Shown here: one piece after another, positions 168 to 54,405 of the stretch
Layout of the letters: each line of letters opens with the position of its first letter
Position numbering within the stretch: position 1 is the stretch's first letter
DNA from: Desulfosudaceae bacterium
GTDB taxonomy: Bacteria > Desulfobacterota > Desulfobacteria > Desulfobacterales > Desulfosudaceae
Direction: 5' to 3'
Length of the DNA: 64,000 bases
Assembly: GCA_963674745.2 (NCBI GenBank)
Contig: CAXXDV010000003.1
Location: forward strand, 238,478 to 302,477
Notes under the pieces: generated by a model
Seen by the model: only the letters and a program-made list of their open reading frames with translations
Database searches by the model: none
Told to the model about the DNA's origin: nothing
Made by a program: the position numbers and the translations under genes

Positions 168-854
168 TTGAAATACATGATCGAAAACACCGATGATCAT
201 TCGTTTTCCATTATAAACCGGTTTATTGACAACGACGCGGATGTACTGGAATTCGGTTCCGCGGCCGGCTATTTCACCCGCTACTTGACCGAGGAACGCA
301 ATGCTGCGGTGGATATTGTGGAAATAGACAGCGATTGCGCCGCCAAGGCGGCTGTATACGCTCGTGATTCCTACATCGGGGACATAGAGCAGTATGGATG
401 GAAAGACGCTTTTTCGGAAAAGCGTTATGACTATATTCTCTTTTCCGATGTACTTGAACATCTGCGGGATCCCTGGCGGACGCTGAAGGAATCCGTGGGC
501 ATGCTCAAGCCCGGTGGCCGGATCATTTTATCCGTGCCCAACATTGCCCATACGCAGATCCTGTCCAGCTTATATAACAATGATTTTTCCTATTCCGACG
601 TCGGTATTATGGACAGGACCCACCTTCGTTTTTTTACCGAAGCCACCCTTCGGGAATTGATTGATGAGGCCGGCCTGAACGCCGGTGAGGTGGTTCCGGT
701 AGAGGCCCCGGTGTTGCCGAAAAACTGCGGCACACGCTGGAATAAAATATATGTGCCGGCCAGGCTGTGGGAAGCACTCGCCTCCAAAGAACACGCCAAT
801 GCCATTCAATTTGTGGCATGTTGCCAGAAGGAAGATCACGATGGTGACAAATAA
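168..854 (+). CDS. Class I SAM-dependent methyltransferase
   Basis: The ORF carries the motif VLEFGSAAGYFT (SAM-binding motif I) and LKPGGRIILSVPN. The reading frame is open from nt 3 to 167, so this may be the C-terminal domain of a longer protein starting left of the window. An alternative ATG lies at 177. Confidence 0.75.
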   Translation: MKYMIENTDDHSFSIINRFIDNDADVLEFGSAAGYFTRYLTEERNAAVDIVEIDSDCAAKAAVYARDSYIGDIEQYGWKDAFSEKRYDYILFSDVLEHLRDPWRTLKESVGMLKPGGRIILSVPNIAHTQILSSLYNNDFSYSDVGIMDRTHLRFFTEATLRELIDEAGLNAGEVVPVEAPVLPKNCGTRWNKIYVPARLWEALASKEHANAIQFVACCQKEDHDGDK

Positions 855-1638
855 AGCAAAAGTGACGCGCGAACTGCACTGGGAAAATGACAATATCTTT
901 AAAATAGATGACGTGACTTTTGTTGTGGAAGCGGGAGACGGGTTATACAATGCAATCTCCGAAGAACAGACATTTGTTATCGGCAAGTCCCGCCGTCAGC
1001 TGGAAACGATCCAGGGATTGGACTTTCGTAACCCGGTTAAACGGGTTTTTGACCTGGGTATTTACAAGGGCGGCAGTGTCATGTTTTATCACAAACTGTT
1101 TTCCCCGGAAAAGATTGTCGCCGTTGATATTGACAACAAGCCGGTTGAACCCCTGGATGCTTATATCAGCGCCAACGGGCTCGACCGTACAATCCGTACC
1201 TATTATGGCGTGGACCAGTCAGACCCGGACGCGATGGGGGAAATCCTGCGGAAAGAGACGGAAGGACAGTTTTTCGACCTGGTGGTGGACGATGCTTCCC
1301 ATTTGCTCAAAGAGACCCGGGCGTCTTTTAATATGCTCTTGCCCCATGTCGCGCCCGGTGGATACTATATCATTGAAGACTGGGGCTGGGCGCATTGGGA
1401 AGGCGAACACTGGCAGGGGAAAGGTGGCCCCTGGCCGAATGAGCCGCCTTTGTCCAACCTGGTTTTTGAGTTGACCATGCTGCTGGCTTCACGCCCGTTC
1501 GTCGTCGAGTCCATTTTTCTGTTGCCGGCTTATGCCGTAATAAAACGGGGAACGGAAGCACTTGACCGCAAGTCGGGGCAATTCGATATTTCAAACAGCT
1601 GTCTGAATCGCGGCAAACAGGTGCAGTTCCTCGATTGA
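841..1638 (+). CDS. SAM-dependent methyltransferase (CmcI / rhamnosyl O-methyltransferase-like)
   Basis: I place the start at the internal ATG at 841, which overlaps the previous stop (ATGGTGACAAATAA). Motifs are VFDLGIYKGGSVMF, DLVVDDASH and GGYYIIED. The 751 start would overlap the upstream gene by about 100 nt. Confidence 0.65.
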   Translation: MVTNKAKVTRELHWENDNIFKIDDVTFVVEAGDGLYNAISEEQTFVIGKSRRQLETIQGLDFRNPVKRVFDLGIYKGGSVMFYHKLFSPEKIVAVDIDNKPVEPLDAYISANGLDRTIRTYYGVDQSDPDAMGEILRKETEGQFFDLVVDDASHLLKETRASFNMLLPHVAPGGYYIIEDWGWAHWEGEHWQGKGGPWPNEPPLSNLVFELTMLLASRPFVVESIFLLPAYAVIKRGTEALDRKSGQFDISNSCLNRGKQVQFLD

Positions 1639-1654
1639 CCGTTCCTGAAAATGT

Positions 1655-1681
1655 TGTAGGGGCAGGCCCCCGTGCCTGCCC
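1655..1681. repeat. GC-rich hairpin repeat TGTAGGGGCAGGC-CCCCGT-GCCTGCCC
   Basis: This is a perfect 8-bp stem. The 27-mer is identical to 41324..41350. Confidence 0.8.
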
Positions 1682-1777
1682 GGCAGAAGGAGTCAGGGGC
1701 TGGGGGTCAAATCAGCTCGTGAAATATCCGGGTTAAAGCAGAGCAACCGTTTTGGCGAAAGCGCCGGGCGGGCAAGG

Positions 1778-2485
1778 ATGAACATGAAACCGGCTTTATT
1801 TCTTCATATTCAAAAGACGGCCGGCACATCTGTGGTGAAGATGTGCCGTGAATATTATGGAGAAACGCTTGTTTCGCATATCGATTACCGCGGGCGTAAA
1901 CCCGAATCCTTTGAGGAAACGGGTTTTGTTTCCGGTCATTTCGGATATGGTTTTGCCCGACCGCTGATGGGCTCCCGATACAGCTTTACCTTTCTCCGTG
2001 ATCCCGTGGAGCGCGTTTTATCGTTCTATTATTTCTGTTGCCGGTCCGATCCGGATGCCTATGAAATTTACCGGCTGACACAGGAAAATACAATAAATGA
2101 TTTTCTGGACATGGGCCTGGATAATCCCCGGGTCAAAACCCATATCTGGAACCATCAGACCTGGCAACTGGCCTGTGGATGGGGGAATCCTTCCCAAAAA
2201 AGCATATTGGATTACGACGGGGAGGCGATGCTGGGCGAAGCCAGAACACATCTGGCTGAATTCGATTATGTCGGTTTTACAGAATCGTTTGATCAGGATA
2301 TTCATGTCATATTAAACAGTTTAGGCATCAGCCGATCCGCAAAGGCTTTAAAGACCAATGCGGGCGGTCCCAGACCCCGGAAAACCGATTTGTCCTCGTC
2401 CATCCGGGAACGGTTGGCCCGGCTGACGGAGCTGGATCAGACGCTGTACGATTCTGCTCTGGCCGGACGTTTAAAACGCGTCTGA
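1778..2485 (+). CDS. Sulfotransferase family protein
   Basis: It has the N-terminal FLHIQKTAGTSV motif (the HIPKTGGTS-type PAPS-binding motif of the Sulfotransfer_2-like family) and FTFLRDPVERVLSFY. Confidence 0.75.
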   Translation: MNMKPALFLHIQKTAGTSVVKMCREYYGETLVSHIDYRGRKPESFEETGFVSGHFGYGFARPLMGSRYSFTFLRDPVERVLSFYYFCCRSDPDAYEIYRLTQENTINDFLDMGLDNPRVKTHIWNHQTWQLACGWGNPSQKSILDYDGEAMLGEARTHLAEFDYVGFTESFDQDIHVILNSLGISRSAKALKTNAGGPRPRKTDLSSSIRERLARLTELDQTLYDSALAGRLKRV

Positions 2486-2571
2486 ACAGAATCCGGAACA
2501 CCGCCGCCCCCGGCCTGGCGGATTGGTATTGATGCCTTCCGGCTCAGCCGGTTGAGTTAAGGTGGAAATCG

Positions 2572-4551
2572 TTGTTTATGAGCGAACGAAAAGATCAGAC
2601 CGTATACCTTCATCTGGGAACGTATAAAACCGCCACTACTTTTCTGCAGCGCGTTTTGTGGAAGTCATACGATAATCCCGGCGGCGATATTTATTATCCC
2701 CGGGCCGGCATTTACGGAAACGCCCATCATTACCTGACAACAGAAAGTTTTCCGGGTTGGACCAACGGCGTGACGCCGGAAGAATACGAGCAGGCCTGGA
2801 AGCATTTGCTGGCGGATATCAGCGGGAGTAAGGCCGCATCTATTGTTATCAGCTCTGAGATGTTCTGCTCGCTCTCTTTGGCCCGGATACGTTATATAAG
2901 GGAGACGTTGCGCGACTACCCGGTGCGGGCGATTGTCTATTTAAGGCGCCAGGACCAATATATCTCTTCGATGGCGGCGCAAATGGTCAAAGGGTGTAAC
3001 GGCAAACCTGAATACTACACGGACTTGAACCGCGCCGTAAAATTCGTCCGGTCCGAAAAACAGTTTGATTATGAAATCATTTGTGACAAATGGGCATCAG
3101 TAATCGGGAAAGACAATCTGGTGGTGCGTCCTTTTGAGCGGAAGCAATTGCATAAAGAAGATATCCTGGCCGACTTTTTCCATTATCTGCTGGGCATGAC
3201 TGTCCCTCAAAGCGCCGTTCTCCCGGAGCGAAACATAAATCCCCGGCTTTGTCGTGATGCCCTTGAATTCAAACAACTGGTTAATCGTCTGCCGACCGAC
3301 AGGGATACCAAAATCGCCACCCTGCCCGGTCTTCTGGAATATTCACGGAAAATAGATTCCGGAACACAGAACATTTATCAGGAGCATGTGTTGCTGCCGC
3401 TGCCTGAGCGCCGGAAAATCCTTCACCAATGCGCGGACGGCAATGCTAATATTGCCCGCACCTATCTCGGACGGGAAGACGGTGTGTTGTTTATGGAACC
3501 GCTGAACGAACCGGTCGTTGAGTGGAAGCCATATCCCGGGTTAAATGTCGACACGATTGAGGCCATGGTCGGCTATCTGGGTGAGACCAATCCCGGTGTG
3601 GTAGAGCTTCTGGCGCGGGCGGCATTGTCAGCTGACAAGAATGATGCCCAATTGCTGCCTCTGGTTAAAGTGTTAAAAAGATACGTGAATAAAAACAGGT
3701 CGATCGCTTCATTGATGCCGACATCTTTGTTGCGTTCCCGCCCCATTCGTGTGCTGGGGCGATTTCTGGCCAAAACAAAGAAGGCTCCGGCGGTGGCGGC
3801 GCCTAAACACCAGCCGGAACAGGAAATCGCAAAACAGTTTGTCCCGGCCTTATTCCTGCATATCCGAAAGACAGGCGGTACCTCGATTGTCATGCAGGCC
3901 ATGGACCACTATGGCTATGAGAATGTGTGTGGTCATGGTGACTACATGGGCAAGCCGCCGCCGCATTTTAAAAATTTACCTTTTGTTTCCGGGCATTTCG
4001 GGTTTGATTACGCCAGGGAGTTGATGCCCGGTCGGTTTTCGTTTACGTTTTTAAGGGATCCGGTCGAAAGGATTCTTTCCCTGTATTCTTTCTGCCGGGT
4101 TCAGGACCCGGAGGAATTCCCCATCTACCGGGCGGCTTCGGATCATGACCTGGACGGATTTCTGCGGGCGGCTGAAGATGACGGCCTGGTCCGGGCTTAT
4201 ATCTGGAACAGCCAGGTCTGGTGCCTGGCCGCCGGACCCGGTTACGTTGAGACGCTGGAAACAGTGGCACAACCCGACGAAATGTTCAATCAGGCCCTTG
4301 AAAACATCAAACAGTTGTCGTTTGTCGGGATGATTGAGACCTTTGACGCGGACGCCGGATATATTATGCGGGCCTTGAACATGAACGCCGGCGAAAAAGT
4401 CAGAAAAGACAATGTCACCCGGGACAGGATTTCGGTTGAAGGCCTTCCGGAAAAGACGTTGCAGCTGTTAGCGGACCTGACCGAATGGGACCGGAAACTT
4501 TACGACACCGTCCGGCGCAAAAGAGACCGGTTAGCATACCAGGCGGATTGA
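2572..4551 (+). CDS. Two-domain protein with tandem sulfotransferase-type domains
   Basis: The N-terminal half carries YLHLGTYKTATTFLQ (a P-loop-like sulfotransferase-type motif). The C-terminal half carries LFLHIRKTGGTSIV and FTFLRDPVERILSLY, and is paralogous to 1778..2485. The start is either TTG 2572 or ATG 2578. Confidence 0.7.
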   Translation: MFMSERKDQTVYLHLGTYKTATTFLQRVLWKSYDNPGGDIYYPRAGIYGNAHHYLTTESFPGWTNGVTPEEYEQAWKHLLADISGSKAASIVISSEMFCSLSLARIRYIRETLRDYPVRAIVYLRRQDQYISSMAAQMVKGCNGKPEYYTDLNRAVKFVRSEKQFDYEIICDKWASVIGKDNLVVRPFERKQLHKEDILADFFHYLLGMTVPQSAVLPERNINPRLCRDALEFKQLVNRLPTDRDTKIATLPGLLEYSRKIDSGTQNIYQEHVLLPLPERRKILHQCADGNANIARTYLGREDGVLFMEPLNEPVVEWKPYPGLNVDTIEAMVGYLGETNPGVVELLARAALSADKNDAQLLPLVKVLKRYVNKNRSIASLMPTSLLRSRPIRVLGRFLAKTKKAPAVAAPKHQPEQEIAKQFVPALFLHIRKTGGTSIVMQAMDHYGYENVCGHGDYMGKPPPHFKNLPFVSGHFGFDYARELMPGRFSFTFLRDPVERILSLYSFCRVQDPEEFPIYRAASDHDLDGFLRAAEDDGLVRAYIWNSQVWCLAAGPGYVETLETVAQPDEMFNQALENIKQLSFVGMIETFDADAGYIMRALNMNAGEKVRKDNVTRDRISVEGLPEKTLQLLADLTEWDRKLYDTVRRKRDRLAYQAD

Positions 4552-4617
4552 CCAAAGCGCCGATAATCCGGATATCTTTCCCGGGTGAGTCACCTTGAAC
4601 CCGAGTCCCTGGCAAAA

Positions 4618-4643
4618 GGGCACCCACAGGGGGGTGCCCCTCA
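4618..4643. repeat. GC-rich hairpin repeat (GGGCACCC-ACAGGGG-GGGTGCCC, opposite orientation)
   Basis: It belongs to the same family as 1655..1681. Its stem variant is shared with 26557 and 50794. Confidence 0.75.
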
Positions 4644-4807
4644 TTAATTACGTCCTGCGCCTTGCACGAGCGCCCAAATCAACATGTGAAATATGCGGGC
4701 TAAGGGGTTTTGCTTATTGCAAGTCCGGACATAAAACAATATAATGCGTTGAAATAATATAATATAGGTCGGCAATAAGATTAAAACGCCTGGCCAGGAG
4801 GTGGTTG

Positions 4808-6001
4808 ATGACAGACCTGTCTGAAAACAGCGGTTCTCCCCGCTATGTTTACAACAGCCAGAAAACATATCTGGATTTACTTGTAAAGTCCGTTTTGGGG
4901 CTGATTTATGAAGACCCGCCTTATCCGCGTTTCGGGGATGAAGTGTTTAATCTGGATACCCGGCTAAAAGGCCTGGATTGGCCGACAAAGGCCCTTACCA
5001 TGGTCGGCCTTAAACGGTTGATGAATGCCCGGCAACTGGCTGAAAATGTAATTTGGGAAAACGTGCCCGGCGATTTCCTCGAAGCCGGTGTCTGGCGGGG
5101 CGGCGTCGGTATCATGCTGCGGGGGGTTTTGTCGGCCTACGGTGTATCTGATCGTTGTTTATGGCTGGCCGACTCTTTTGAGGGGTTGCCACCGCCGGAC
5201 AAAGACGCTTATCCGTCAGACAGTGCCTCCGAGTTTCACACCTGCCCGGAACTGGCGGTGAATATCGATCAGGTTAAAGGGAATTTTCGAAAATACGATC
5301 TGCTTGATGACCAGGTTGTATTTCTCAAAGGGTGGTTCAAGGACACCCTGCCTCAGGCGCCAATAGACAAGATCGCCCTGTTGCGCCTGGACGGGGACTT
5401 GTATGAATCAACCATGCAGGGCCTGGTTTCGTTATATGATAAAGTCAGTGACAACGGATATATCATTATTGACGATTATCATTGCGTGCCCCAGTGCGCC
5501 CAGGCGGTTGAGGACTTCTGCGCCAAAAGAAACATTTCCCCGGTCTTAAACGAAATCGACGGTGTCGGTGTCTATTGGCGCAAGCAATCCGCTTCGTCCG
5601 GATTGGCAGCGGATGCGTCCGGCGGCGATACAGGGGCGGCGGCAGACAGCGACGTGATGCAGCAGGACACGCATTATGTCAGAATCAATCAGGTCTTGAA
5701 TAAGCGTTATGTCCAACTGGCTGAAAGGGATGCCATGATCGCCGAAAGAGATGCCCGACTGGCCGAAAAAGACGCCCTGATCGTGGAAAAGGACGTGGCG
5801 CAGGCGGAGTTGATCGCGGACCGTGACGAGCAGTTGGCCGAGCGTGATGCCCGGTTTGCGGAACAAAAAGCATTGCTGGCCGAACGTGACGTCAGCATAC
5901 AGAATCTGGAGCATACCATTGAGTTGATGGAATACTCCAGGTCATGGCGTATTACCGCGCCATTGCGATATATCACAGGCCTGCTTTCCGGAAGAAAGTA
6001 A
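4808..6001 (+). CDS. TylF/MycF/NovP-family O-methyltransferase with C-terminal coiled-coil tail
   Basis: Motifs are GDFLEAGVWRGG and LRLDGDLYEST. The C-terminus holds about 9 heptads of xAERDAx followed by SRSWRITAPLRYI. The SD CCAGGAGGTGG precedes ATG 4808. Confidence 0.8.
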   Translation: MTDLSENSGSPRYVYNSQKTYLDLLVKSVLGLIYEDPPYPRFGDEVFNLDTRLKGLDWPTKALTMVGLKRLMNARQLAENVIWENVPGDFLEAGVWRGGVGIMLRGVLSAYGVSDRCLWLADSFEGLPPPDKDAYPSDSASEFHTCPELAVNIDQVKGNFRKYDLLDDQVVFLKGWFKDTLPQAPIDKIALLRLDGDLYESTMQGLVSLYDKVSDNGYIIIDDYHCVPQCAQAVEDFCAKRNISPVLNEIDGVGVYWRKQSASSGLAADASGGDTGAAADSDVMQQDTHYVRINQVLNKRYVQLAERDAMIAERDARLAEKDALIVEKDVAQAELIADRDEQLAERDARFAEQKALLAERDVSIQNLEHTIELMEYSRSWRITAPLRYITGLLSGRK

Positions 6002-6006
6002 TAAAT

Positions 6007-7983: not shown

Positions 7984-8862
7984 ATGTCCGAAACAATCCT
8001 GGTGGCCGGAGGGACGGGTTTTACCGGCAGTCACACGGTGCCGTTGCTGGCCCGCCGGGGTTACAAACTGCGTTGCCTGGTTCGACCGGACAGTGACACC
8101 CGGCACCTGGAAAGCATCGGGGTGGAACTGGTGCATGGCGATCTTGACGCCCCGGAAAGCCTGAGCCGGGCCTTTTCCAACGTTTCCGCTCTAATCAGTA
8201 TGGTCGGCCTTCATACCGGGCATGCCGTCCCGCTGGTGGATTTGGCGGTCGCAGGAAACATTAAAAGAGCCCTGTTTGTCAGCAGCACATCTGTTTTTAC
8301 CCGGCCCGAAACAAAGACCAAAATCAATCTGGTAAAAGCGGAAAAGCATATCCTTGCCAGCGGGCTGGACCATACAATTATCCGGCCGACCATGGTTTAC
8401 GGCACCGATCAGGACGGCAATATCAGCCGTTTGATCCAATATCTGGCCCGATGGCCGGTGCTGTTTATCCCCGGCCCCGGGACCTGTCTGGTGCAGCCGA
8501 TCTTTGTGAAAGACGTGGCCGGGGCTATTGCCGATGCATTTCAGGCGTCCGTAGCTATCGGCAGAAGCTACAATATATCCGGTCGGGCGCCGTTGACTTT
8601 CAATGCCCTGGTGGATACGGTGTTATCCGTGCTGAAACGAAAAGTCGTCAAAGCCCATCTGCCGGTTTCACCGCTGGTCCGTGCCTGCAAATGGGGCGAA
8701 TCCAGAGGGTTTCCGTTTTTTGTGCGGGCGGACCAGATTGAACGGCTGAACGAAGACAAGGCCTTTGCATATGATGAAGCGGCCAGGGATTTCCAGTTTT
8801 CGCCGGTTCCCTTTGAAACCGGTGTAAGACGCCAGATTGAATCCATGGACTTGGGGCTGTAA
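7984..8862 (+). CDS. NAD(P)-dependent epimerase/dehydratase (SDR fold)
   Basis: It has the N-terminal ILVAGGTGFTGSH Rossmann motif. Confidence 0.75.
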   Translation: MSETILVAGGTGFTGSHTVPLLARRGYKLRCLVRPDSDTRHLESIGVELVHGDLDAPESLSRAFSNVSALISMVGLHTGHAVPLVDLAVAGNIKRALFVSSTSVFTRPETKTKINLVKAEKHILASGLDHTIIRPTMVYGTDQDGNISRLIQYLARWPVLFIPGPGTCLVQPIFVKDVAGAIADAFQASVAIGRSYNISGRAPLTFNALVDTVLSVLKRKVVKAHLPVSPLVRACKWGESRGFPFFVRADQIERLNEDKAFAYDEAARDFQFSPVPFETGVRRQIESMDLGL

Positions 8863-10956: not shown

Positions 10957-12189
10957 TTAATCGGCGGTGTGCCGTTTTTTTGAACGTCCGGGTCGGGCCA
11001 GGTTCCGGTCGATTTCCCTTAACGGCAAGGGGCTTTTCAAGAACTTCTCTCCGATTTCATAGATCACCACATCCGGTTGGTATGTCTCGACAAGGTCCAT
11101 TATCGGGTACCTGCTCAGTTCCGAATGACGGATGTGAATGACTTCCTTGATGATGCAGTGCAGATAAGGCGCGATAAAATTACTGAAAGAATCCCTGACC
11201 AGCAGCAACCGGCTGTCGGTGTCAAGGGCCGTGTTGATGATTCGTTGCGGTGCCATCCCCTGGCGCACGCGTATCTTTCTGGTGATCCGGACATCCTCGG
11301 GCGCTTTTTGTCCCAGGTGCCTTTCCAACGTCTGTTTGCGGGGCACGGAATTAAACCACGGCTGGTTGTCTTTTAGATAACAGGTTTGCGGATATTCCAG
11401 CCAGCCGTACAGGGTATTGTCTCCGGGCGTCTCATGGTAAGAGATGGCGTCAGTTAAAACAGCGCCCGGTATTTTCAATAATGTTTGCAAATGGGCGGCT
11501 GTTTCCTGGAAGGCGTAAAAACCACCGACACTGTTCCAGTGTGTTCCGCCGGGAAAATACAATGCCTCCGGACCGGACTTTTTTTGCAGCAGTCGTGCGG
11601 TCGGATCGATAACAGTAACCTGTCGCCGCATGAGTCCTTCACGTATAAGGTCGCGTCGGGATGGCGCGTCAATCCCCCGCTGGGCCCAGTCCGGCAGCTT
11701 TTCAGGGTAAATCGTGTGCTTGTCCGGCGCTACCAGCAGCATAAAGGGAATGCCTTTGTCTGCCAGCGCGTCGCGCAGGGTCACGAAAAACCTGATCGCT
11801 TTTGGAATATCCCCACGACTTTCCCAGTCCAGTCTGCGGTGCTGGGTAAGTGCATCGCAGGACTGATCGCCTAAAAACAGCCAGCCGTCTTTGCCGATGG
11901 TTACCCGGTCGGGCTTGGCGGAAACGCCCAGATCGGCATACAGCCGGGTCATCGCCTTGATCAGTTCAAAGCGAAAAATGACCCTGTCATTGAACCATTC
12001 CTCCAGGGCTTCTGATTCTTTGTCAAAACGGATGGAAAAAGTCGGTGCGGGTGCCGGTTTTCGGCGTTCGATGCGGGAGAAACGTTTCGTATCCGGCGCC
12101 TTGAACATGCCCAGCATGGGAAACACCAGCACGATCAGGAGCCCCAAAATGCAGCATATATCAAATATGGAAGAATGGTTTTTGGGCAT
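10957..12189 (-). CDS. AlgJ/AlgX-like polysaccharide O-acetylation protein (SGNH-like)
   Basis: It has an N-terminal TM anchor and the VAPDKHTIYPEKLP motif. It is adjacent to an MBOAT gene and only 2 nt separate the two. Confidence 0.6.
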   Translation of the reverse strand: MPKNHSSIFDICCILGLLIVLVFPMLGMFKAPDTKRFSRIERRKPAPAPTFSIRFDKESEALEEWFNDRVIFRFELIKAMTRLYADLGVSAKPDRVTIGKDGWLFLGDQSCDALTQHRRLDWESRGDIPKAIRFFVTLRDALADKGIPFMLLVAPDKHTIYPEKLPDWAQRGIDAPSRRDLIREGLMRRQVTVIDPTARLLQKKSGPEALYFPGGTHWNSVGGFYAFQETAAHLQTLLKIPGAVLTDAISYHETPGDNTLYGWLEYPQTCYLKDNQPWFNSVPRKQTLERHLGQKAPEDVRITRKIRVRQGMAPQRIINTALDTDSRLLLVRDSFSNFIAPYLHCIIKEVIHIRHSELSRYPIMDLVETYQPDVVIYEIGEKFLKSPLPLREIDRNLARPGRSKKRHTAD

Positions 12190-12191
12190 GG

Positions 12192-13688
12192 CTAAAACCG
12201 GAAATAAATAAATGGATTATAGGCCCCGTTATATAGATGTATCATGGAAAGAAACATGACAAGGCCGCCCCATACCAGAAGTGATGCCTGTAACAAGGTA
12301 TAACACGGGTTGAAGCCGCCCTGCCGAGGCTGCCATTGCTGTTTCAAACGGGTAAAGGCGACAACCGGCAGGCCGGTGGCAGCCACCACGCCCACGATCA
12401 TGGAAAGCAATACCGGAGCAGAGGCGAATTCCGAAAAAGAGCGGGCATAAGCGTAAGAACCCGGGTCGCCCAGAAGGGCTCTGGTATAAAGCCAGGCCTG
12501 GCTCATATCTTCGGACCGGAAAACGATCCAGCCGGTCATTACGACCAGCAACGCGTATCCATGCCGGAAGACGTGAGGTGTCCGCTGGAGAACGCGTTCA
12601 AATCCGGCCCGTTCAATAACCAGGAACAGACCGTGCCAGCCCCCCCAGAGCACAAAGTTCCAACTGGCGCCATGCCACAATCCGCATAGCAGAAAGACAA
12701 TCCAAAGGTTCAGGTAAGTACGCCGTTGGCCGGCTCGATTGCCGCCCAGGGGGATGTATAGATAATCCCGCAGCCAGGTGGAAAGGGAAATGTGCCAGCG
12801 CTGCCAGAATTCACGGATTGACTTTGAAATATAAGGATAGTTGAAGTTCTCAGGAAAATGAAAACCCAGCATCAGCCCAATCCCGATGGCCATATCGGAA
12901 TAGGCGGAAAAATCAAAATAGATCTGCAGGGTGTATGCCGCGATGCCCCACCAGGCAACGGCCGTTGAAAGCTGATTCGGGGGCATGTTGAATATGGCGT
13001 CAGCCGCCTGGGCGATGATGTTGGCGAGGAGGACTTTTTTGGCCAGGCCGACAACAAAGCGTCTGGCACCGGCTGCGAATTGTGACCGCTCATTGCTTCG
13101 TTTGACAAGTTCGGCGGAAATTTGATTGTAGCGGACGATGGGGCCTGCCACCAGCTGGGGGAACATGGAAATATAACAGGCCAGCTGGTCAAAGCGCCTG
13201 GTGGCCACGGCAGTGCCGCGGTACACGTCAATGATGTAGCTGAGCGCCTGAAAGGTATAAAAACTGATCCCCAGCGGCAGGCTGATTTCCGCCACATCGC
13301 GCAGCCGTGTCGCGTCGATGCCCAGCCATTGTGCTATGGCGGCAACGTTGTTCAAGGCAAAGTTGGCGTATTTGAAATAACCCAGAAAACCGAGGCATAA
13401 AACCACGGTGACAGCCAGAACCCATTTGCGGCCGGCAGATTTTCCATTGCCTTCACCGCTCTGCGTTTCTGCCTCACCGTTGCTCAATAGAATACCGGCA
13501 ATCCACACCACAGCGATCAGGGCCACCATTCCGATTACCAGTTGCGGTTCACCCCAGGCGTAAAATATGAGGCTGAAGACCAGTAAAACCCCGTTGCGCA
13601 ATCGTACAAACCGGGCAGGCACCAGAAAATATGCGGCCAGCATTAACGGTAAAAAAAAATGCAGGAATATAAGCGAACTGAAAACCAT
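12192..13688 (-). CDS. MBOAT family O-acyltransferase (AlgI/DltB-like)
   Basis: It is a multi-TM protein with FWQRWHISLSTWLRDYLYIPLGGNR, the canonical MBOAT His motif. Confidence 0.9.
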   Translation of the reverse strand: MVFSSLIFLHFFLPLMLAAYFLVPARFVRLRNGVLLVFSLIFYAWGEPQLVIGMVALIAVVWIAGILLSNGEAETQSGEGNGKSAGRKWVLAVTVVLCLGFLGYFKYANFALNNVAAIAQWLGIDATRLRDVAEISLPLGISFYTFQALSYIIDVYRGTAVATRRFDQLACYISMFPQLVAGPIVRYNQISAELVKRSNERSQFAAGARRFVVGLAKKVLLANIIAQAADAIFNMPPNQLSTAVAWWGIAAYTLQIYFDFSAYSDMAIGIGLMLGFHFPENFNYPYISKSIREFWQRWHISLSTWLRDYLYIPLGGNRAGQRRTYLNLWIVFLLCGLWHGASWNFVLWGGWHGLFLVIERAGFERVLQRTPHVFRHGYALLVVMTGWIVFRSEDMSQAWLYTRALLGDPGSYAYARSFSEFASAPVLLSMIVGVVAATGLPVVAFTRLKQQWQPRQGGFNPCYTLLQASLLVWGGLVMFLSMIHLYNGAYNPFIYFRF

Positions 13689-13749
13689 TGTCGTTAAGAA
13701 ACTGTTTATTAATAAAAAGGTTGATGTAGTCGTAAAAAGTCATCATTTG

Positions 13750-13873
13750 GATGGCAAAGTAAAAAGTTCAAGATCAAGGCGCGCAAATCCTGAGGAATGC
13801 AGCGTACATAGAAGTACGTGAAATTCCGAAGGATGAAGCGCAACGCAGATATTGAACTTTTTACGACGCCATC
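13750..13873 (-). repeat. GATGGC...GCCATC structured repeat, copy R1
   Basis: The outer stem pairs GATGGCAAAGTAAAAAGTTCAA with TTGAACTTTTTACGACGCCATC. The core is the reverse complement of the cores at 17119..17255 and 47400..47523. Confidence 0.75.
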
Positions 13874-13996
13874 AAGGTTAACGATCTGTTTTTGTTGCAT
13901 AGTCAATAACAGCGGTCCCATTTCTTGTCAATGCTTTTTCTCCACCCCGGGTTCTGACGAAAATATTGACACCCGCGGACGCCCTTGTTATGGATA

Positions 13997-14773
13997 ATGG
14001 CCATGAGTCAGAAGGAATCGATTAATAATCTTAAAGAAAAATTTAAAAGCCTTGGTAAAAAATCCAGGTCTTTTGTAAACAGATACACTATGGCAAATAA
14101 CGACAAAATACTGTTTGTGCATATCCCTAAAACGGCCGGGATATCAATCTATAATGCCCTGGCCGAAGCCGTCGGAGGACATGACCGGGCGATACGTTTC
14201 CCAAGGAATTCAGAAGAAGAAAGAGAAAAGTACCTCTCCATGACCAGGACAGAGGTACGGTCATATAACCTTTTATCCGGGCATTTCCCGCTCCCCTTTT
14301 TCTTAAGACAGCCAATTTCCGATTACAAAGCGGTCACGGTGTTCAGAAACCCGGTGGACCGTGAACTTTCAGCTTATTTTTACATTAAAACGGATCCGGA
14401 TCATCCTTTAAATACGGAGTGGTTCAGGTCTTTAAATTTGTATCAATATATCGAGCATCGTCAAGAAAAAGGCAATGCCAACCCGCAGTGCCTGTTCATG
14501 TGCGGCGAAAGGTCATTTGAAAAGGCAAGAAAAGCCGTTGATGAACAGCTTTTCCTGACGGCACCGCTTGATTATGTTAAAGACTTTCTGGAGGTGCTTG
14601 CAAAGCGGCTGGAGATTCCCATTAATCCCCCTGAGAGAGCCAATAAAACCTCTTTCCGCCTGACAGTTGACGAAATCCACCCGGACATTAAAGCCGGGTT
14701 TGAATCGTTGACCCGGGAGGACCAAAAGCTTTACGAATATGTTAAGGAGAAGTTTGAAAAAGAATTTCTTTAA
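13997..14773 (+). CDS. Sulfotransferase family protein
   Basis: Motifs are LFVHIPKTAGISI and VTVFRNPVDRELSAY. The start is uncertain among TTG 13985 and ATG 13997, 14003 or 14090. Confidence 0.75.
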   Translation: MAMSQKESINNLKEKFKSLGKKSRSFVNRYTMANNDKILFVHIPKTAGISIYNALAEAVGGHDRAIRFPRNSEEEREKYLSMTRTEVRSYNLLSGHFPLPFFLRQPISDYKAVTVFRNPVDRELSAYFYIKTDPDHPLNTEWFRSLNLYQYIEHRQEKGNANPQCLFMCGERSFEKARKAVDEQLFLTAPLDYVKDFLEVLAKRLEIPINPPERANKTSFRLTVDEIHPDIKAGFESLTREDQKLYEYVKEKFEKEFL

Positions 14774-14853
14774 AAAAATGGTAAAGTGCTATAATTTGTT
14801 CAGAATTGGCATTTGGGGGAATTCCTGGCCGGGCAGAATAAGAAAGAGGGGTT

Positions 14854-15921
14854 ATGGGACAATTGAATGACAAACGGGTACTGGTGACCGGCTGTTGCGG
14901 TACGGTCGGCGGAGAACTGGTCCGCCAACTGCTGTCGGACTATGCCGTTAAAGAACTGGTGGGGCTGGACAACAATGAAAGTGAACTGTTTTTTACCCAG
15001 CAGCGCTACAATGATTATTCGGCGCATTTTTTTCTGGCTGATGTCCGGGACCAGCAACGTTTGATACGGCTGTTTTCAGGGGTGGATATCGTTTTTCATG
15101 CGGCTGCTTTCAAACACGTTATCCTGTGCGAGGTGTCGCCGTTCGAAGCCGTTCAGACCAATATCAACGGTGTACAGAATGTTATCCTGGCCGCTACTGA
15201 AAACCGGGTCAAAACAGTTGTGTTTACCAGCTCGGACAAGGCCGTCAACCCGACCAATGTCATGGGGACCTCCAAGCTGATGGGCGAACGGTTGATGACG
15301 GCCGCCAACAGTAACCTGCGCGGTGGTTTATCGGCGTTTATTTCCACCCGTTTTGGAAACGTTCTCGGGTCCCGGGGATCGGTAATTCCCATTTTCAGGG
15401 ATCAGATCCGCAAGGGCGGGCCGGTTACCATTACTGACGAGGAGATGACACGGTTTATCATGAGTATCCGACAGGCAGTGCAGCTGGTCATTGATTCCGT
15501 GGCCCTTGCCAGGGGTGGCGAAGTCTTTGTCACCAAGATGCCGGTTATCCGCATCCTGGATCTGGCCCATGTCATGATCGCAGAACTGGCGGGAAATTAT
15601 GGCCATTCGCCGGAAGATATAAAGATCGAAATCATCGGTAGCAAGCCCGGTGAGAAACAATACGAAGAACTGATGACCGGTGAGGAGGTTCGCCGTTGTG
15701 TTGAACTGGAGCGGTATTTCGTGGTCAAGCCGGCCTTTACCTCACTTTACCGGGACCTGACCTATTCCTATCCCGATGTGATCAACGGCGTGGTTGACCG
15801 GCCTTATCATTCGGCCAATGAGCCCGCCCTGGACCGTGAGCAGCTGCGCCGTTTCCTGATCGATAACGAACTGCTGGAGGGTGAGGAAGAAGATACGTTC
15901 CGGCCGGACAGGCGCTATTAG
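14854..15921 (+). CDS. Soluble CapD/PseB-like nucleotide-sugar 4,6-dehydratase (SDR)
   Basis: Motifs are KRVLVTGCCGTVGGEL, SSDKAVNPTNVMGTSKLMGE and RFGNVLGSRGSVIP. Confidence 0.8.
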   Translation: MGQLNDKRVLVTGCCGTVGGELVRQLLSDYAVKELVGLDNNESELFFTQQRYNDYSAHFFLADVRDQQRLIRLFSGVDIVFHAAAFKHVILCEVSPFEAVQTNINGVQNVILAATENRVKTVVFTSSDKAVNPTNVMGTSKLMGERLMTAANSNLRGGLSAFISTRFGNVLGSRGSVIPIFRDQIRKGGPVTITDEEMTRFIMSIRQAVQLVIDSVALARGGEVFVTKMPVIRILDLAHVMIAELAGNYGHSPEDIKIEIIGSKPGEKQYEELMTGEEVRRCVELERYFVVKPAFTSLYRDLTYSYPDVINGVVDRPYHSANEPALDREQLRRFLIDNELLEGEEEDTFRPDRRY

Positions 15922-15932
15922 GGGTTGTGGTT

Positions 15933-17120
15933 ATGTCGAACATTCTGATTCTCGGTGGTGACGGTTATCTGGGCTGGCCGACGGCCATGTATTTTTCCGC
16001 CCGCGGCCATGACGTCACGGTGGTCGATAATTATTTTCGTCGAAATGCCTGTACGGAACTGGATGTGGGCATGCTTTACCCCATCCCGACACTTGTTGCC
16101 CGGGCCAAAATCTGGCATGAAAAAACCGGTAGAGAGATCCGGGTGGTCATCGGCGACCTGACGGACCCCGAGATCATGCGGGGCCTGTTTGACGGCCGGG
16201 TGACCTATGTCTGGCCCCCGGAAAAGGCTTTTGCGGGCATCCCGGAAACGGTTTTTCATTATGCCGAACAACCTTCGGCGCCTTATTCGCTGATCAATTA
16301 CAAGTATGCCAATATCACGATTACGAATAATCTTCTGGTGACCAACAACCTGGTGTTCGCACTCAAGGATTTTGCGCCGTCGACCCATGTGGTCCATATC
16401 GGCACCATGGGTGAATACGGCACGCCTGATATTGATATTGAAGAAGGATGGCTCGACATCACCCACAAGGGCCGGACGGATCGGTTTCTGTTTCCCCGAC
16501 AGGCAAGTTCTCTGTATCACACCACCAAAATTATGGATACAGACCTGATGTGGTTCGGGGTGCGCATGTGGAACCTGCGGATAACCGACCTGATGCAGGG
16601 TCCGGTCTACGGTTTTAAGACCGAAGAAACCGGCGATGATGAGCGGTTGTACACGCTTTTTAATTATGATGAGATTTTCGGCACCATCATCAACCGGTTT
16701 GTCCTTCAGGCGGTTGTCGGGTATCCGCTGACGGTTTATGGAAAAGGGGGGCAGACACGCGGTTATCTGAATATTAACGATACCCTGCAATGTGTTTACA
16801 AGGCCTTTGAAACACCGGCCAAAGCAGGTGAACTGCGGATTTTTAATCAGATCATGGAAACCTTTTCGGTCAATGAACTGGCGGAAAAGGTGCGAGCCGT
16901 GGGTAGTGCCCGGGGACATGAGGTGACGGTCGACCATATTGAAAACCCCCGCAAAGAAGCCGAGGAACATTATTACAATCCGGTTTACCAGGGCCTGATT
17001 GATATCGGTGTCGAACCCCATTATCTGACCGATGAGGTACTGGCATCTTTTTTTGAGGCGGTTGAAAAGTTTCGGGATAATGTGCGTCGGGATGTGATTT
17101 TCAGGGGCGTCAAGTGGTGA
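15933..17120 (+). CDS. sqdB: UDP-sulfoquinovose synthase (SQD1/SqdB/Agl3 family)
   Basis: Long collinear similarity to plant SQD1 as I recall it: ILGGDGYLGWPTAMYFS..VDN, EQPSAPYS, IGTMGEYGTPDIDIEEGWLDITHKGRTD..FPRQASSLYHTTK (YxxxK) and DLMQGPVYG. The ATG at 15933 lies 2 codons downstream of GTG 15927. Confidence 0.85.
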   Translation: MSNILILGGDGYLGWPTAMYFSARGHDVTVVDNYFRRNACTELDVGMLYPIPTLVARAKIWHEKTGREIRVVIGDLTDPEIMRGLFDGRVTYVWPPEKAFAGIPETVFHYAEQPSAPYSLINYKYANITITNNLLVTNNLVFALKDFAPSTHVVHIGTMGEYGTPDIDIEEGWLDITHKGRTDRFLFPRQASSLYHTTKIMDTDLMWFGVRMWNLRITDLMQGPVYGFKTEETGDDERLYTLFNYDEIFGTIINRFVLQAVVGYPLTVYGKGGQTRGYLNINDTLQCVYKAFETPAKAGELRIFNQIMETFSVNELAEKVRAVGSARGHEVTVDHIENPRKEAEEHYYNPVYQGLIDIGVEPHYLTDEVLASFFEAVEKFRDNVRRDVIFRGVKW

Positions 17121-17255
17121 TGGCTTCGTAAAAAGCCCAAGATCGGCGTTGCGCTGCATCCTTCGGAACTTCATGTACTTCTATGTACGCTGCATTCCTC
17201 AGGATTTGCGCGCCCCAATTTTATATCTGGGGCTTGAACTTTTTACTTTGCCATC
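17119..17255 (+). repeat. GATGGC...GCCATC structured repeat, copy R2
   Basis: It begins inside the sqdB TGA stop (TGATGGC). The core GCGTTGCGCTGCATCCTTCGGAACTTCATGTACTTCTATGTACGCTGCATTCCTCAGGATTTGCGCGCC is inverted relative to R1. Confidence 0.75.
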
Positions 17256-17291
17256 AGGATTTTGTACGAGGGAGTTAATAGGTGATTATGC

Positions 17292-17320
17292 TTGACAGTC
17301 TGGTGTAGTTTCGTTTAGAT
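17292..17320 (+). promoter_or_regulatory. Candidate sigma70-type promoter
   Basis: TTGACA (17292..17297), a 17-nt spacer and TTAGAT (17315..17320), upstream of the ComEA-like gene. This is a sequence match only. Confidence 0.3.
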
Positions 17321-17448
17321 CAGAATGCGAATAAAATTGGGGGCGAACAATAATCATATTGTTTTACCGGGGCTGATCAGCAGGCCCGGCGCCTGGAAAA
17401 GGCATGACGCTTTTTCCGGTATTTCAACACATTACATGGAGGTAAGAA

Positions 17449-17772
17449 ATGATGACAAAGAAATTCGCAGGTTTATTGTGTCTGGTGGTTCTCGCTCTGG
17501 TCGCTTTGTCCGGCCCTACGCTGGCCGACAGTCAGCAAGAAGGACTGGCTGAAAAAATCAACATTAATACGGCATCGGCTGATGCCCTGATGCAACTGAG
17601 CGGCGTGGGGCGCGCATACGCCAACCGGATTGTTGAATATCGAGAAACGCAGGGATTGTTTTCTCATATTGAAGAAATAAAGAATGTTAAAGGTATCGGT
17701 GACAGGATTTTTGAAAAAAATAAAGATCGTATCACTGTGGAAATCAAAACAAGCAAGAAGACTGATCAATGA
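17449..17772 (+). CDS. ComEA-family helix-hairpin-helix DNA-binding protein (secreted)
   Basis: It has a signal peptide, then ININTASADALMQLSGVGRAYANRIVEYR...IKNVKGIGDRIFEKNK (tandem HhH). The SD GGAGGT lies upstream. Confidence 0.75.
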   Translation: MMTKKFAGLLCLVVLALVALSGPTLADSQQEGLAEKININTASADALMQLSGVGRAYANRIVEYRETQGLFSHIEEIKNVKGIGDRIFEKNKDRITVEIKTSKKTDQ

Positions 17773-17815
17773 GGCAGATGATGTAGCATCAGTCGCTGTT
17801 TTGTTCGCCCTCGGC

Positions 17816-17870
17816 AATGTGCGGTATGGCACTGCGGCATGTACCGCGACCATGCCGCACATTTGTTTTT
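17816..17870 (+). terminator. Rho-independent terminator candidate
   Basis: AATGTGCGGTATGG pairs with CCATGCCGCACATT and is followed by TGTTTTT, about 45 nt after the ComEA-like stop. Confidence 0.55.
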
Positions 17871-17938
17871 GACGGCTTCGTAAAAAAAATAATGGAGCCG
17901 TCAAACGGCCGTTCGCCCGTTTATGGAAAACAGAGTCA

Positions 17939-19867
17939 ATGAAGCGCTTGTATTTTACCAGAAACAGCGTGGTTGTCATTCTGACCGACTTTCTTCTGGT
18001 CGGCCTGGCCTTTTATCTGTCTTTTCTTCTGCGTTTTGATTTTCAGATTCCCCGGCACCATGCCGAGGCGCTGTGGGATGTCTTCCCGCTGGTCCTGCTG
18101 ATCAAGCCGGTAATTTTTTATTATTTTGATTTTTACCGGGGTATGTGGCGATATACCAGTCTTTCCGATCTGTTGAACATCTTTAAAGCAACGATTTTCA
18201 GCAGTCTGATTATCGTGGGCGCCATATTGTTTCTCAATCGGTTCGAAAATATACCCCGGTCGGTGTTTCTGATTGACTGGCTGCTGACAGGCCTTTTTGT
18301 GTCCGGTTTCCGGATCATGATCCGCTTATATTTTGAATACAGCACCGGCGCCAGGCTGACCGATATTTTCAGGATATTGCTGACCGCTGTTTTTCAACGC
18401 GGCAAGGCCGGTGAGACAAAGAAATTGTTAATTGTCGGCGCCGGCAATTGCGGCGAAAAAATTCTTCGTGAAGTCCAGTCCGATTCGCGGCTGGGCTATC
18501 ATGTGATGGGCTTTCTGGACGATAACCCCGCCAAGATCGGCATGAAAATCCATGGCGTAACCGTCCTTAACAGCGTCGCCTTCTTAAAAAATATCGTCGC
18601 CAGGGAAAACGTCGCCGAAGTCATCATTGCTGTCCCCTCGGCAACTTCCGGCCAGATGCGGCAAATCGTCCAGTATTGTGAAGACAGTGGCGTGAAGTAC
18701 AGAACCGTGCCGGGGTATGCGGAACTGGTCAACGGCAGAATCTCGATTTCAGCGGTTCGTGAGGTCGCCTACCAGGATCTGCTGGGCCGGGAGGCGGTTA
18801 CCCTGGACATCGATCAGATCGGTGCCTATTTGAGGGGGCAGAATGTTATTATTACCGGTGCGGGCGGTTCCATCGGTTCCGAACTCAGCCGCCAGGTCTG
18901 CCGTTTTAATCCCGCCCTGGTGATCCTGTTTGAACGGGCGGAAACGTCCCTGTATGAAATTGATCTTGAATTGCGTGATGTCTTCAGGGCCTCGGACATC
19001 GACCTGGTAGCGGTGTTAGGAGACATCCAGGACCGGCGTCAGCTTGATGCCGTATTTGAAAAATACGCACCCGGCGTGGTTTTTCACGCGGCCGCCTACA
19101 AACATGTGCCCATTCTCGAAGCCCACCCCTGGAAGGCGGTCAAGAATAATATCTGCGGCACGCAGAATCTGGTGGAAATATCGCTTGCGCACCATGTTGA
19201 ACGTTTTGTTTTTGTGTCCACCGACAAGGCGGTCCGTCCCGCCAACGTGATGGGTGCTTCCAAGCGGATTGCCGAGATCCTTTTGCAAAGTCAGGACCAC
19301 GGCAGTGATGCCGGCACACAGTTTAAAATCGTCCGTTTCGGCAATGTCATCGGCAGCGCCGGCAGCGTTATCCCTTTGTTTAAAAAACAGATTGCCAGGG
19401 GTGGTCCGGTGACGGTGACCCATCCGGAAGTGACCCGTTATTTCATGACCATTCCCGAAGCCTGCCAGCTGATACTACAGGCCGGCGCCATTGACAGCCA
19501 GCAGGGCAGTAAAACCGAAGTGTATATCCTCAAGATGGGCACACCGGTTAAAATTGTAGACATGGCACGTGACCTGATTCGGCTTTCCGGTTTCAAACCT
19601 GAAGAGGATATAAAGATTGAGTTTACGGGCCTGCGTCCCGGTGAAAAGCTATACGAAGAGCTGATGACCGCGGAAGAAGGCCTGGTTCCGACATCGCATA
19701 CAAAAATTCTGGTGTTAAACGGTCATGAATCCGACCTGACCGTTTTGAATGAAAAGATTGTCCAGTTGATGAGATCGGCCGAAAACCAGGACGATGAGAA
19801 AATCAGGGCCGTTTTAAAAGAAATTGTTCCCGAATTTCAACCCGGAGAAAATAATGAGAAACACTGA
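17939..19867 (+). CDS. Membrane-anchored CapD/WbpM/PglF-type UDP-HexNAc 4,6-dehydratase
   Basis: It has four N-terminal TM helices, then LIVGAGNCG, VIITGAGGSIGSEL, STDKAVRPANVMGASKRIAE and RFGNVIGSAGSVIP. Confidence 0.85.
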   Translation: MKRLYFTRNSVVVILTDFLLVGLAFYLSFLLRFDFQIPRHHAEALWDVFPLVLLIKPVIFYYFDFYRGMWRYTSLSDLLNIFKATIFSSLIIVGAILFLNRFENIPRSVFLIDWLLTGLFVSGFRIMIRLYFEYSTGARLTDIFRILLTAVFQRGKAGETKKLLIVGAGNCGEKILREVQSDSRLGYHVMGFLDDNPAKIGMKIHGVTVLNSVAFLKNIVARENVAEVIIAVPSATSGQMRQIVQYCEDSGVKYRTVPGYAELVNGRISISAVREVAYQDLLGREAVTLDIDQIGAYLRGQNVIITGAGGSIGSELSRQVCRFNPALVILFERAETSLYEIDLELRDVFRASDIDLVAVLGDIQDRRQLDAVFEKYAPGVVFHAAAYKHVPILEAHPWKAVKNNICGTQNLVEISLAHHVERFVFVSTDKAVRPANVMGASKRIAEILLQSQDHGSDAGTQFKIVRFGNVIGSAGSVIPLFKKQIARGGPVTVTHPEVTRYFMTIPEACQLILQAGAIDSQQGSKTEVYILKMGTPVKIVDMARDLIRLSGFKPEEDIKIEFTGLRPGEKLYEELMTAEEGLVPTSHTKILVLNGHESDLTVLNEKIVQLMRSAENQDDEKIRAVLKEIVPEFQPGENNEKH

Positions 19868-54363: not shown

Positions 54364-54405
54364 TCGTTTCTTATAAAGCCATCAGAAATTTAAGAGGGAA
54401 TAAAC

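Follow-up and report, generated by a model that had tools for sequence, protein, structure and literature searches.

Which sugar does an SQD1-like enzyme make when its gene lies among polysaccharide genes, and is that sugar destined for a lipid or for a glycan? The question is raised by a 64,000-nucleotide stretch of the genome of a Desulfosudaceae bacterium (Desulfobacterota; contig CAXXDV010000003.1, positions 238,478 to 302,477 of the forward strand), here called the window. It encodes at 15933..17120 (+) a 395-amino acid (aa) extended short-chain dehydrogenase/reductase (SDR) of the SQD1 family, that is, a protein resembling uridine diphosphate (UDP)-sulfoquinovose synthase. Recent reviews of the sulfoquinovose cycle treat SqdB solely as a sulfolipid enzyme of phototrophs. 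An earlier note on this DNA had read the gene as a UDP-sulfoquinovose synthase in a polysaccharide context. Here we find that the gene and its upstream neighbour form a two-gene cassette common to many lineages, in otherwise unrelated O-antigen, capsule and exopolysaccharide clusters. Judging from sequence, we give about even odds (roughly 0.5) that its product is UDP-sulfoquinovose for a sulfated surface glycan, not for a sulfolipid. As far as we can tell, the cassette and the breadth of its distribution have not been reported so far.

Family membership and genomic setting of the SQD1-like gene

The open reading frame (ORF) is intact; as listed, it opens with a GTG (15927..17120, +; 397 aa). 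Translation more likely starts at the ATG at 15933, because an AGGGG lies 9-13 nt upstream of it and the homologues begin at the same methionine. The stop codon of the upstream gene (TAG, 15919-15921) is separated from this ATG by 11 nt. The alignment with plant SQD1 that the earlier note had made by eye holds end to end: in a phmmer search against PDB chains, residues 1-395 matched residues 1-382 of Arabidopsis SQD1 (1qrr/1i24; E 2.4e-115). Identity is 47-49% to Arabidopsis SQD1 and 38% to S. meliloti SqdB, whose UDP-sulfoquinovose production has been demonstrated in E. coli. An AlphaFold2 model (predicted template-modelling score, pTM, 0.82; mean predicted local distance difference test, pLDDT, 74) was searched with Foldseek, where three SQD1 entries rank first (1i24, E 8e-38, template-modelling (TM) score 0.83). 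The remaining SDRs follow at E ~1e-15 or weaker, which places SQD1 ahead of the next family by about 22 orders of magnitude. The NCBIfam model for UDP-sulfoquinovose synthase, NF041015, gave 402 bits, below its equivalog cutoff of 575 bits. This cutoff was dropped as a membership criterion, as it does not discriminate: Arabidopsis SQD1 (484 bits) and S. meliloti SqdB (332 bits) fall short as well.

The sequence motifs point the same way. The protein retains G8-x-x-G11-x-x-G14 (G8-D-G-Y-L-G14), T158-M159-G160 and Y195-H196-T-T-K199, and the GxxGxxG, T-M-G and Y-H-x-x-K motifs are invariant across 83 members of its clade; the two strings quoted in the earlier note, IGTMGEYGTPDIDIEEGWLDITHKGRTD and YHTTK, are both present in the ORF. 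The combination [ST]-M-G ... Y-x3-K is the fingerprint of UDP-sulfoquinovose synthases (2022 review, Table 1, PMC8987622). Three long SQD1-specific blocks, GTMGEYGTPxIDIEEG, YGKGGQTRGY and NPRxEAEEHYYN, are likewise invariant in the 83 sequences. In Agl3 of Sulfolobus acidocaldarius, alanine mutants of His95, Arg101, Met145, Tyr182 and Lys186 are inactive, and the equivalents of four of these residues (His95, Met145, Tyr182 and Lys186) are present in the window protein. By sequence, fold and fingerprint the protein belongs to the SQD1/SqdB/Agl3 family, whose fold joins an N-terminal Rossmann domain to a C-terminal UDP-sugar domain.

Its clade nevertheless departs from SQD1 and SqdB in three respects. 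The position of Arg101 is Pro114 (EQPSAPYS) throughout the clade, whereas Arg is found in the motif EQR[SA]APYS of SQD1, Agl3 (derived from the mutagenesis primers), S. meliloti SqdB, a Pseudonocardia homologue and a Microbulbifer sqdB-like gene. SQD1 Asn208, which is Asn or His among the known enzymes, is Met (Met221 in the window protein). The clade also carries a specific 13-aa insertion (G-R-V-x-Y-x-W...) at about residues 88-100, before strand 4, which SQD1 and SqdB lack. The insertion is modelled with high confidence and, being placed where strand 4 has its N-terminal end, is probably a surface feature outside the active site.

A 418-aa antisense ORF at 15918-17174 (-) covers the whole SQD1-like gene, and a similar one occurs in 11 related loci; the most likely reading is a shadow ORF over a highly conserved gene, not a separate gene. 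A scan of 13600-18000 for promoters and terminators gave no excess over shuffled sequence.

The gene stands inside a same-strand run (13985-21569, +) of a single polysaccharide cluster of about 21 kb (168-21569, mostly + strand), in which an initiating transferase, glycosyltransferases (GTs) and sugar-nucleotide and modification enzymes occur together, as in a surface-polysaccharide cluster. Its features are as follows.

168-854, +: methyltransferase (family match to Methyltransf_23)
751-1638, +: CmcI-like methyltransferase (weak family match)
1778-2485, +: sulfotransferase (family match to Sulfotransfer_2)
2572-4551, +: sulfotransferase (family match to Sulfotransfer_2)
4805-6001, +: TylF-type O-methyltransferase (family match)
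5944-6951, +: GT2 glycosyltransferase
7008-7910, +: GT2 glycosyltransferase
7984..8862, +: NmrA/epimerase-type SDR, 292 aa
9158..10141, +: WecA/WbpL-like polyprenyl-phosphate N-acetylhexosamine (HexNAc)-1-phosphate transferase (Glycos_transf_4)
within the cluster: DUF218 protein
10957-12189, -: AlgX-like SGNH protein
12192-13688, -: MBOAT/DltB-like protein
13985-14773, +: sulfotransferase (weak match to Sulfotransfer_2), directly upstream of the cassette
14854..15921, +: soluble Pen/CapE-like UDP-HexNAc C6-dehydratase (Polysacc_synt_2, CapD family), 355 aa, motifs SSDK and MGTSK
15933..17120, +: SQD1-family extended SDR, 395 aa (ORF, phmmer, motifs and AlphaFold model)
between the SQD1-like gene and the long CapD gene: ComEA-like gene
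17939..19867, +: membrane-anchored long CapD (WbpM/PglF-like UDP-N-acetylglucosamine (GlcNAc) 4,6-dehydratase, TDK...MxxxK), 642 aa
19824..21569, +: bifunctional sulfate adenylyltransferase/adenosine 5'-phosphosulfate (APS) kinase, that is, 3'-phosphoadenosine 5'-phosphosulfate (PAPS) synthase (NF004040, 818 bits, above the cutoff of 669)

The surroundings are those that the earlier note had described: the sulfotransferase and the CapD-family dehydratase upstream, and glycan genes on both sides. The WecA/WbpL-like transferase is likely the initiating enzyme of the cluster, and the PAPS synthase would feed the sulfate donor to its sulfotransferases. The three methyltransferases (168..6001) are interleaved with sulfotransferases, the AlgX-like and MBOAT/DltB-like genes look like a polysaccharide O-acylation pair, and the NmrA-type SDR is a candidate 4-reductase for the product of one of the dehydratases. 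A relative with 86% identity (locus L003) is syntenic with the window except for an insertion of about 3.9 kb in the window (10957-14773), which comprises the AlgX-like/MBOAT pair and the sulfotransferase at 13985-14773; in L003 the DUF218 gene stands directly before the Pen-like gene.

The partners of the sulfolipid pathway were sought in the window and in 86 related loci. Among the ORFs of at least 150 aa scanned across the 64-kb window there was neither a Glycos_transf_1 (GT4) nor a GT8 protein. As tblastn queries we also used SqdD of S. meliloti and an SqdX-like protein, the GT of a lipid-type two-gene locus of Microbulbifer in which an sqdB-like gene is followed by a family-1 GT. They returned no match in the window, and weak partial GT4 matches in four other loci. 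The absence of an evident lipid partner, as stated in the earlier note, thus extends from the window to the 86 related loci.

The Pen-like partner and the distribution of the pair

Homologues of the window protein are numerous (more than 8000 in the protein database at E <1e-30, the best 120 of them 76-100% identical and 386-413 aa long), and the protein sits in a tight clade of 67-90% identity that spans several phyla; the family tree was made by neighbour-joining, without Agl3 and cyanobacterial SqdB. When the GTDB species were scanned, each by a single representative genome, tblastn confirmed 283 matches, and the loci of the best 80 of these (67-86% identical to the window protein) were analysed; many are contigs of metagenome-assembled genomes, and related genomes among them are not independent samples. 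By record title, 44 of the 80 are Desulfobacterota or 'Deltaproteobacteria', 27 Gamma- or Betaproteobacteria, two Okeania, two Campylobacterota, one an alphaproteobacterium and four others. The gamma- and betaproteobacterial carriers include Legionella gresilensis, Pseudomonas sp., Stutzerimonas frequens, Ectopseudomonas mendocina, Halomonas, Marinobacter, Gilvimarinus and Cocleimonas. Among the carriers with complete genomes are Desulfosarcina variabilis (CP159846), Nitratidesulfovibrio sp. (AP036014) and Legionella sp. (CP183303). A distant-mode blastn search of E. coli complete genomes with a gammaproteobacterial copy of the cassette found no match.

In 74 loci the upstream sequence was long enough to be scored. 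The SQD1-like gene is immediately preceded, on the same strand, by an orthologue of the window gene 14854-15921 (53-92% identity) in 55 of them. The gaps between the two genes range from -53 to +390 nt, so that they overlap or abut in many loci. Where the adjacent gene is absent, there is mostly one within a few kb, and three or four fully flanked loci have none. The CapD-like neighbour of the earlier note is present; it is, however, not ordinary context but a partner conserved across phyla. Its closest solved relative is 6BWC (E 1.4e-81, 43% identity), followed by CapE, an FnlA-like enzyme, FlaA1 and PglF. 6BWC is Pen of B. thuringiensis, a UDP-GlcNAc 5,6-dehydratase that releases UDP-6-deoxy-GlcNAc-5,6-ene, and the characterised members of the Pen/CapE group act on UDP-GlcNAc through the same kind of 4-keto-5,6-ene as SQD1 and Agl3. 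The motifs FTSSDKAVNPT and VMGTxKLMGE are invariant in 73 partner sequences. The S-D-K acid/base pair is thus retained. Where Pen has the Tyr of YxxxK, however, each of the 73 orthologues has Met (MGTSK), a trait shared with CapE and PglF. A matrix of pairwise identities for the SQD1-like protein correlates modestly with that for its partner (Mantel r 0.40, a value reached by none of 999 permutations). In Allochromatium vinosum DSM 180 (L001, 8772-9962; CP001896) the partner is split into 8772-9548 (77% identity) and 9612-9962, with no gene called; this may be a pseudogene or a frameshift.

The surroundings of the pair vary. Outside the syntenic L003, the flanks are unrelated from locus to locus, which together with the spread over phyla argues against simple shared ancestry of whole clusters. 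The 111 genes that border the cassette include 13 GT2, 8-9 GT1-type, 7 Wzx, 5 ABC, 4 APS kinase, 4 Wzz, 3 DegT and 3 WecA-like genes, besides others. Of the 45 loci that span 15 kb or more, 23 carry a sulfotransferase and/or a PAPS synthase. In at least 14 loci, the window not among them, a GalE/WbpP/WbgU-like 4-epimerase gene (product ~330 aa) is attached to the pair, in the order PEN-SQD-epimerase or SQD-epimerase-PEN (for example L042, L052, L082, L027, L059-L061, L067, L068 and L076); it may hint at a product in the galacto configuration, of the sulfofucose type. Of the 42 complete loci, about 13 have no SDR beyond the pair within 7 kb.

Several relatives deserve mention in their own right. 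Directly behind the cassette, about 13 loci (including L001, L005, L020, L049, L062, L064, L066 and L073) encode a protein of 536-630 aa that weakly matches GT1-like and GT2 families, and of which longer versions (780-920 aa) occur in L025, L029, L051 and L053. This protein, absent from the window, is a candidate dedicated transferase. In the filamentous cyanobacteria Okeania spp. (L025, L029) the cassette is followed by a GT2 of about 900 aa, and this copy is presumably a second paralogue beside a canonical sqdB. The plasmid collection, from which the SqdB, SqdD and SqdX-like references were taken, holds distant homologues only (33-48% identity), of the Arg type in the three bacterial ones checked and of the Pro type in Haladaptatus. 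One of them, on a Pseudonocardia autotrophica plasmid (L088, 5998-10936), is an Arg-type homologue of 48% identity. It lies beside a GT2, a pyridoxal phosphate-dependent protein of the cysteine synthase family and a major facilitator superfamily transporter, a setting that may likewise be unrelated to lipids and provide its own sulfur. For the closest outgroup (P0121, 53% identity), a Pen-like neighbour was not found within its short contig. A search for a fusion of the SQD1-like and Pen-like proteins was given up, as the long family members are of other kinds. Many of those with 680-1100 aa carry inteins (Hint, LAGLIDADG; P0124, P0132, P0145, P0156, P0206, P0217 and P0257), and one, P0232 (821 aa), is an Aminotran_5 fusion with a C-terminal class-V aminotransferase domain of the cysteine desulfurase/sulfinate desulfinase type, which might reflect a link to a sulfur donor.

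Candidate products of the cassette

By homology to SQD1 and Agl3, the window enzyme would oxidise C4 of its substrate through a tightly bound NAD+, a 4-keto-5,6-ene intermediate would then form, and sulfite would be added at C6 before C4 is reduced again, giving a UDP-6-deoxy-6-sulfo-hexose. Most simply, UDP-glucose and sulfite would yield UDP-sulfoquinovose, which one of the glycosyltransferases of the cluster would use. PAPS-dependent sulfotransferases would put O-sulfate esters on the same polymer, so that a surface polysaccharide heavily decorated by sulfation, methylation and acylation might result. The sequences themselves show the family, the conserved motifs, the glycan setting, the conserved pairing and the lack of lipid-pathway neighbours; the addition of sulfite, the kind of sugar and its use in a glycan we infer from homology and gene context. 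Sulfite would presumably be readily available in a sulfate reducer, as the earlier note had suggested; dsr and apr genes were not found in the 64-kb window, and the relatives carry Thermodesulfobacteriota names.

Known systems offer partial parallels. SQD1 and SqdB (Arabidopsis; cyanobacteria and alphaproteobacteria) share the full-length extended-SDR fold and the motifs, and probably the chemistry; their pathway, however, runs with SqdX or SqdD/C, whereas the window gene stands in a polysaccharide cluster with a Pen-like partner. Agl3 is an SQD1-family enzyme that serves a glycan rather than a lipid. It is, however, archaeal, acts in protein N-glycosylation, has Arg101, and no Pen-like partner has been described for it. 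The Pen/Pal pair of B. thuringiensis also consists of two adjacent SDR genes; the Pen-like partner keeps S-D-K, and the second enzyme of the cassette could in principle act on the ene. The Pen/Pal pair differs in the YxxxK of Pen against the MxxxK of the partner, in a second enzyme that is Pal-like and not SQD1-like, and in the pseudaminic-acid genes, which are absent around the cassette. At its distal end the cluster carries a WecA/WbpL-like transferase and a long, membrane-anchored CapD, a layout reminiscent of the wbpL-wbpM end of Pseudomonas aeruginosa-type O-antigen clusters. In the window, however, the cassette, the ComEA-like gene and the PAPS synthase lie in or near that end, and Wzx, Wzy or an ABC exporter were not seen. 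According to a 2024 review there are just two natural sugars with a C-S bond (PMC11407970), and the only one besides sulfoquinovose is the 6-C-sulfo-D-fucose of the Thermoplasma acidophilum N-glycan, a glycan sugar with a C6-S bond for which, by contrast, no biosynthetic pathway is known. The precedents for a sulfosugar in a glycan, Agl3 and the Thermoplasma sulfofucose, are thus archaeal.

UDP-sulfoquinovose for a surface glycan agrees with the SQD1-like protein outscoring S. meliloti SqdB on the UDP-sulfoquinovose synthase model (402 against 332 bits), and several observations weigh against it. A stand-alone UDP-sulfoquinovose synthase needs no partner, yet a Pen-like gene lies upstream in most loci, and the canonical reaction leaves this near-obligate pairing unexplained; as a result, the sugar made may not be plain sulfoquinovose. 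About one third of the complete loci are without another SDR able to finish a separate 6-deoxy-HexNAc pathway. The clade has Pro at the position of Arg101, and Agl3 R101A is inactive; Met in place of Asn208 is a further departure from the known enzymes. The earlier call of a UDP-sulfoquinovose synthase accordingly stands as to a full-length member of the SQD1 family, and its product is a prediction that has to accommodate this Pro. As proof of lost function, however, the exchange is weakened by the family at large. Among 88 aligned full-length representatives of 50%-identity clusters, Pro/Met is the majority state, and it occurs in an Anaerolineae member that stands among housekeeping genes and has no Pen-like neighbour, so that this state does not depend on the partner. 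No flippase, polymerase, ABC exporter or synthase was found in the first 21.6 kb of the window, but the cluster extends past the left edge. In the literature searched, we found no characterised member of the clade, no description of a bacterial polysaccharide with sulfoquinovose, and nothing relevant on 6-sulfo-N-acetylquinovosamine (6-sulfo-QuiNAc), sulfoquinovosamine or C-sulfonated sugars in bacterial polysaccharides; in agreement with the earlier note, it places C-sulfonated sugars in lipids and archaeal N-glycans only.

The pairing would find an explanation if the two enzymes acted in sequence. The Pen-like protein would make the UDP-GlcNAc 5,6-ene, and the SQD1-like enzyme, in the place of Pal, would re-oxidise C4, add sulfite at C6 and reduce C4 to give UDP-2-acetamido-2,6-dideoxy-6-sulfo-glucose (6-sulfo-QuiNAc) for the glycan. 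Such a hand-off, in which the N-acetylated ene is trapped with sulfite, would explain both the pairing and the frequently missing reductase, since both steps are redox-neutral and fit the complete loci that have no extra SDR. It is also favoured by the distance of 11 nt between the genes in the window and their overlap or contact elsewhere, by the recurrence of the invariant SSDK/MxxxK partner across phyla in non-syntenic flanks, and by the correlated identity matrices. The closest structure is Pen, which releases the N-acetyl counterpart of the compound that Agl3 sets free when sulfite is absent. The exchanges Arg101 to Pro and Asn208 to Met would fall in the pocket for NAD and sugar, if positions 101 and 208 correspond to GalE K84 and N179. 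On the other hand, SQD1-family enzymes dehydrate their substrate unaided, which would make the partner redundant, and the Pro/Met state is the commonest in the family, also where no Pen-like neighbour exists. The partner has the MxxxK of CapE and PglF and not the YxxxK of Pen, the gatekeeper Tyr that we take to be equivalent to GalE Tyr299 is kept (in the HYY motif), a few fully flanked loci have no Pen-like gene, and no report of such a sugar turned up in the literature searched. We regard this route as a serious alternative, though a less probable one than UDP-sulfoquinovose for a glycan. About as probable as the route is the wider proposal built on it: the two genes would be spread widely as a horizontally mobile cassette, and would yield UDP-6-sulfo-QuiNAc as a third natural C-S sugar, or its galacto epimer where the GalE-like epimerase is attached.

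Two further explanations depart from sulfosugars for glycans altogether. The clade might have drifted to another SDR reaction, for example as a UDP-hexose 5,6-dehydratase that feeds the CapE-like enzyme towards a 6-deoxy-L-hexose, or as an epimerase or reductase that takes the product of the partner as its substrate. The loss of an arginine that is essential in Agl3, the behaviour of Agl3 as a 5,6-dehydratase without sulfite and the lack of a characterised clade member would suit such a drift. It is nonetheless unlikely in view of the 47-49% identity to SQD1, the invariance of the T-M-G fingerprint and of the SQD1-specific blocks in 83 sequences, and the strong co-occurrence with sulfotransferases and PAPS synthases; besides, simpler enzymes for 6-deoxy sugars already exist. 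Alternatively, UDP-sulfoquinovose could be made for sulfoquinovosyldiacylglycerol (SQDG), with SqdX or SqdD/C/A encoded elsewhere in the genome and the glycan neighbours a coincidence. Some cyanobacteria do have sqdB and sqdX unlinked (PMC13436972). Against this, the SQD1-like gene follows a glycan-pathway gene at 11 nt within a co-directional run of glycan genes, and SqdX- and SqdD-like matches are absent from the window and, beyond the weak partial GT4 matches, from the 86 loci. The glycan association is repeated in at least 80 loci, including those of Legionella, Pseudomonas-group bacteria, Halomonas and Desulfobacterota, taxa not known for SQDG. The SqdBDC/SqdA route has been reported from Alphaproteobacteria alone, and in the cyanobacterium Okeania the cassette adjoins a 900-aa GT2. 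A sulfolipid role is therefore very improbable, and UDP-sulfoquinovose for a sulfated surface glycan is the reading that we retain.

Other features of the window and implications of the cassette

Three features outside the cluster were recorded. The overlapping ORFs 27535-28320 and 26669-27655, in the region 26669-28320 (-), each hold one half, N-terminal and C-terminal respectively, of a GlpA-like FAD (DAO) dehydrogenase and adjoin GlpB-like (25101-26438) and GlpC-like (23899-25104) genes, so that glpA looks frameshifted or split. At 59924-62410 (-), an 827-aa ORF has an unusual architecture, in which a radical-SAM domain (residues 152-311) is joined by a weak MBOAT match towards the C-terminus (715-791). 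In the region 53596-56436 (+), a tandem pair of DUF5981 (MTHFR C-terminal-like) proteins precedes a 4Fe-4S protein.

Sulfoquinovose is usually seen as a lipid product of phototrophs, plus a few archaeal N-glycans. The conserved cassette in surface-glycan clusters of many non-phototrophs points to a second, unmeasured source of sulfosugars, and suggests that sulfonated sugars enter bacterial surface glycans, beyond photosynthetic membrane lipids. Because cultured carriers exist, for instance Stutzerimonas frequens DNSP21, Ectopseudomonas mendocina PSB00032, Desulfosarcina variabilis and Legionella gresilensis, the question is directly testable. The cassette may provide the missing biosynthetic logic for sulfofucose-type sugars, and it may bear on the O-antigen chemistry of Legionella and Pseudomonas-group isolates. 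If the pair indeed makes UDP-6-sulfo-QuiNAc, sulfonated amino sugars would be regular components of O-antigens or exopolysaccharides in sulfate reducers, in Legionella and the Pseudomonas group and in further lineages, and would form an unrecognised organosulfonate pool in anoxic sediments. The conserved cassette as such bears on the charge and cation binding of the exopolymers of sulfate reducers, and on the organosulfonate cycle in anoxic sediments and mats, the habitat of sulfonate-respiring bacteria.

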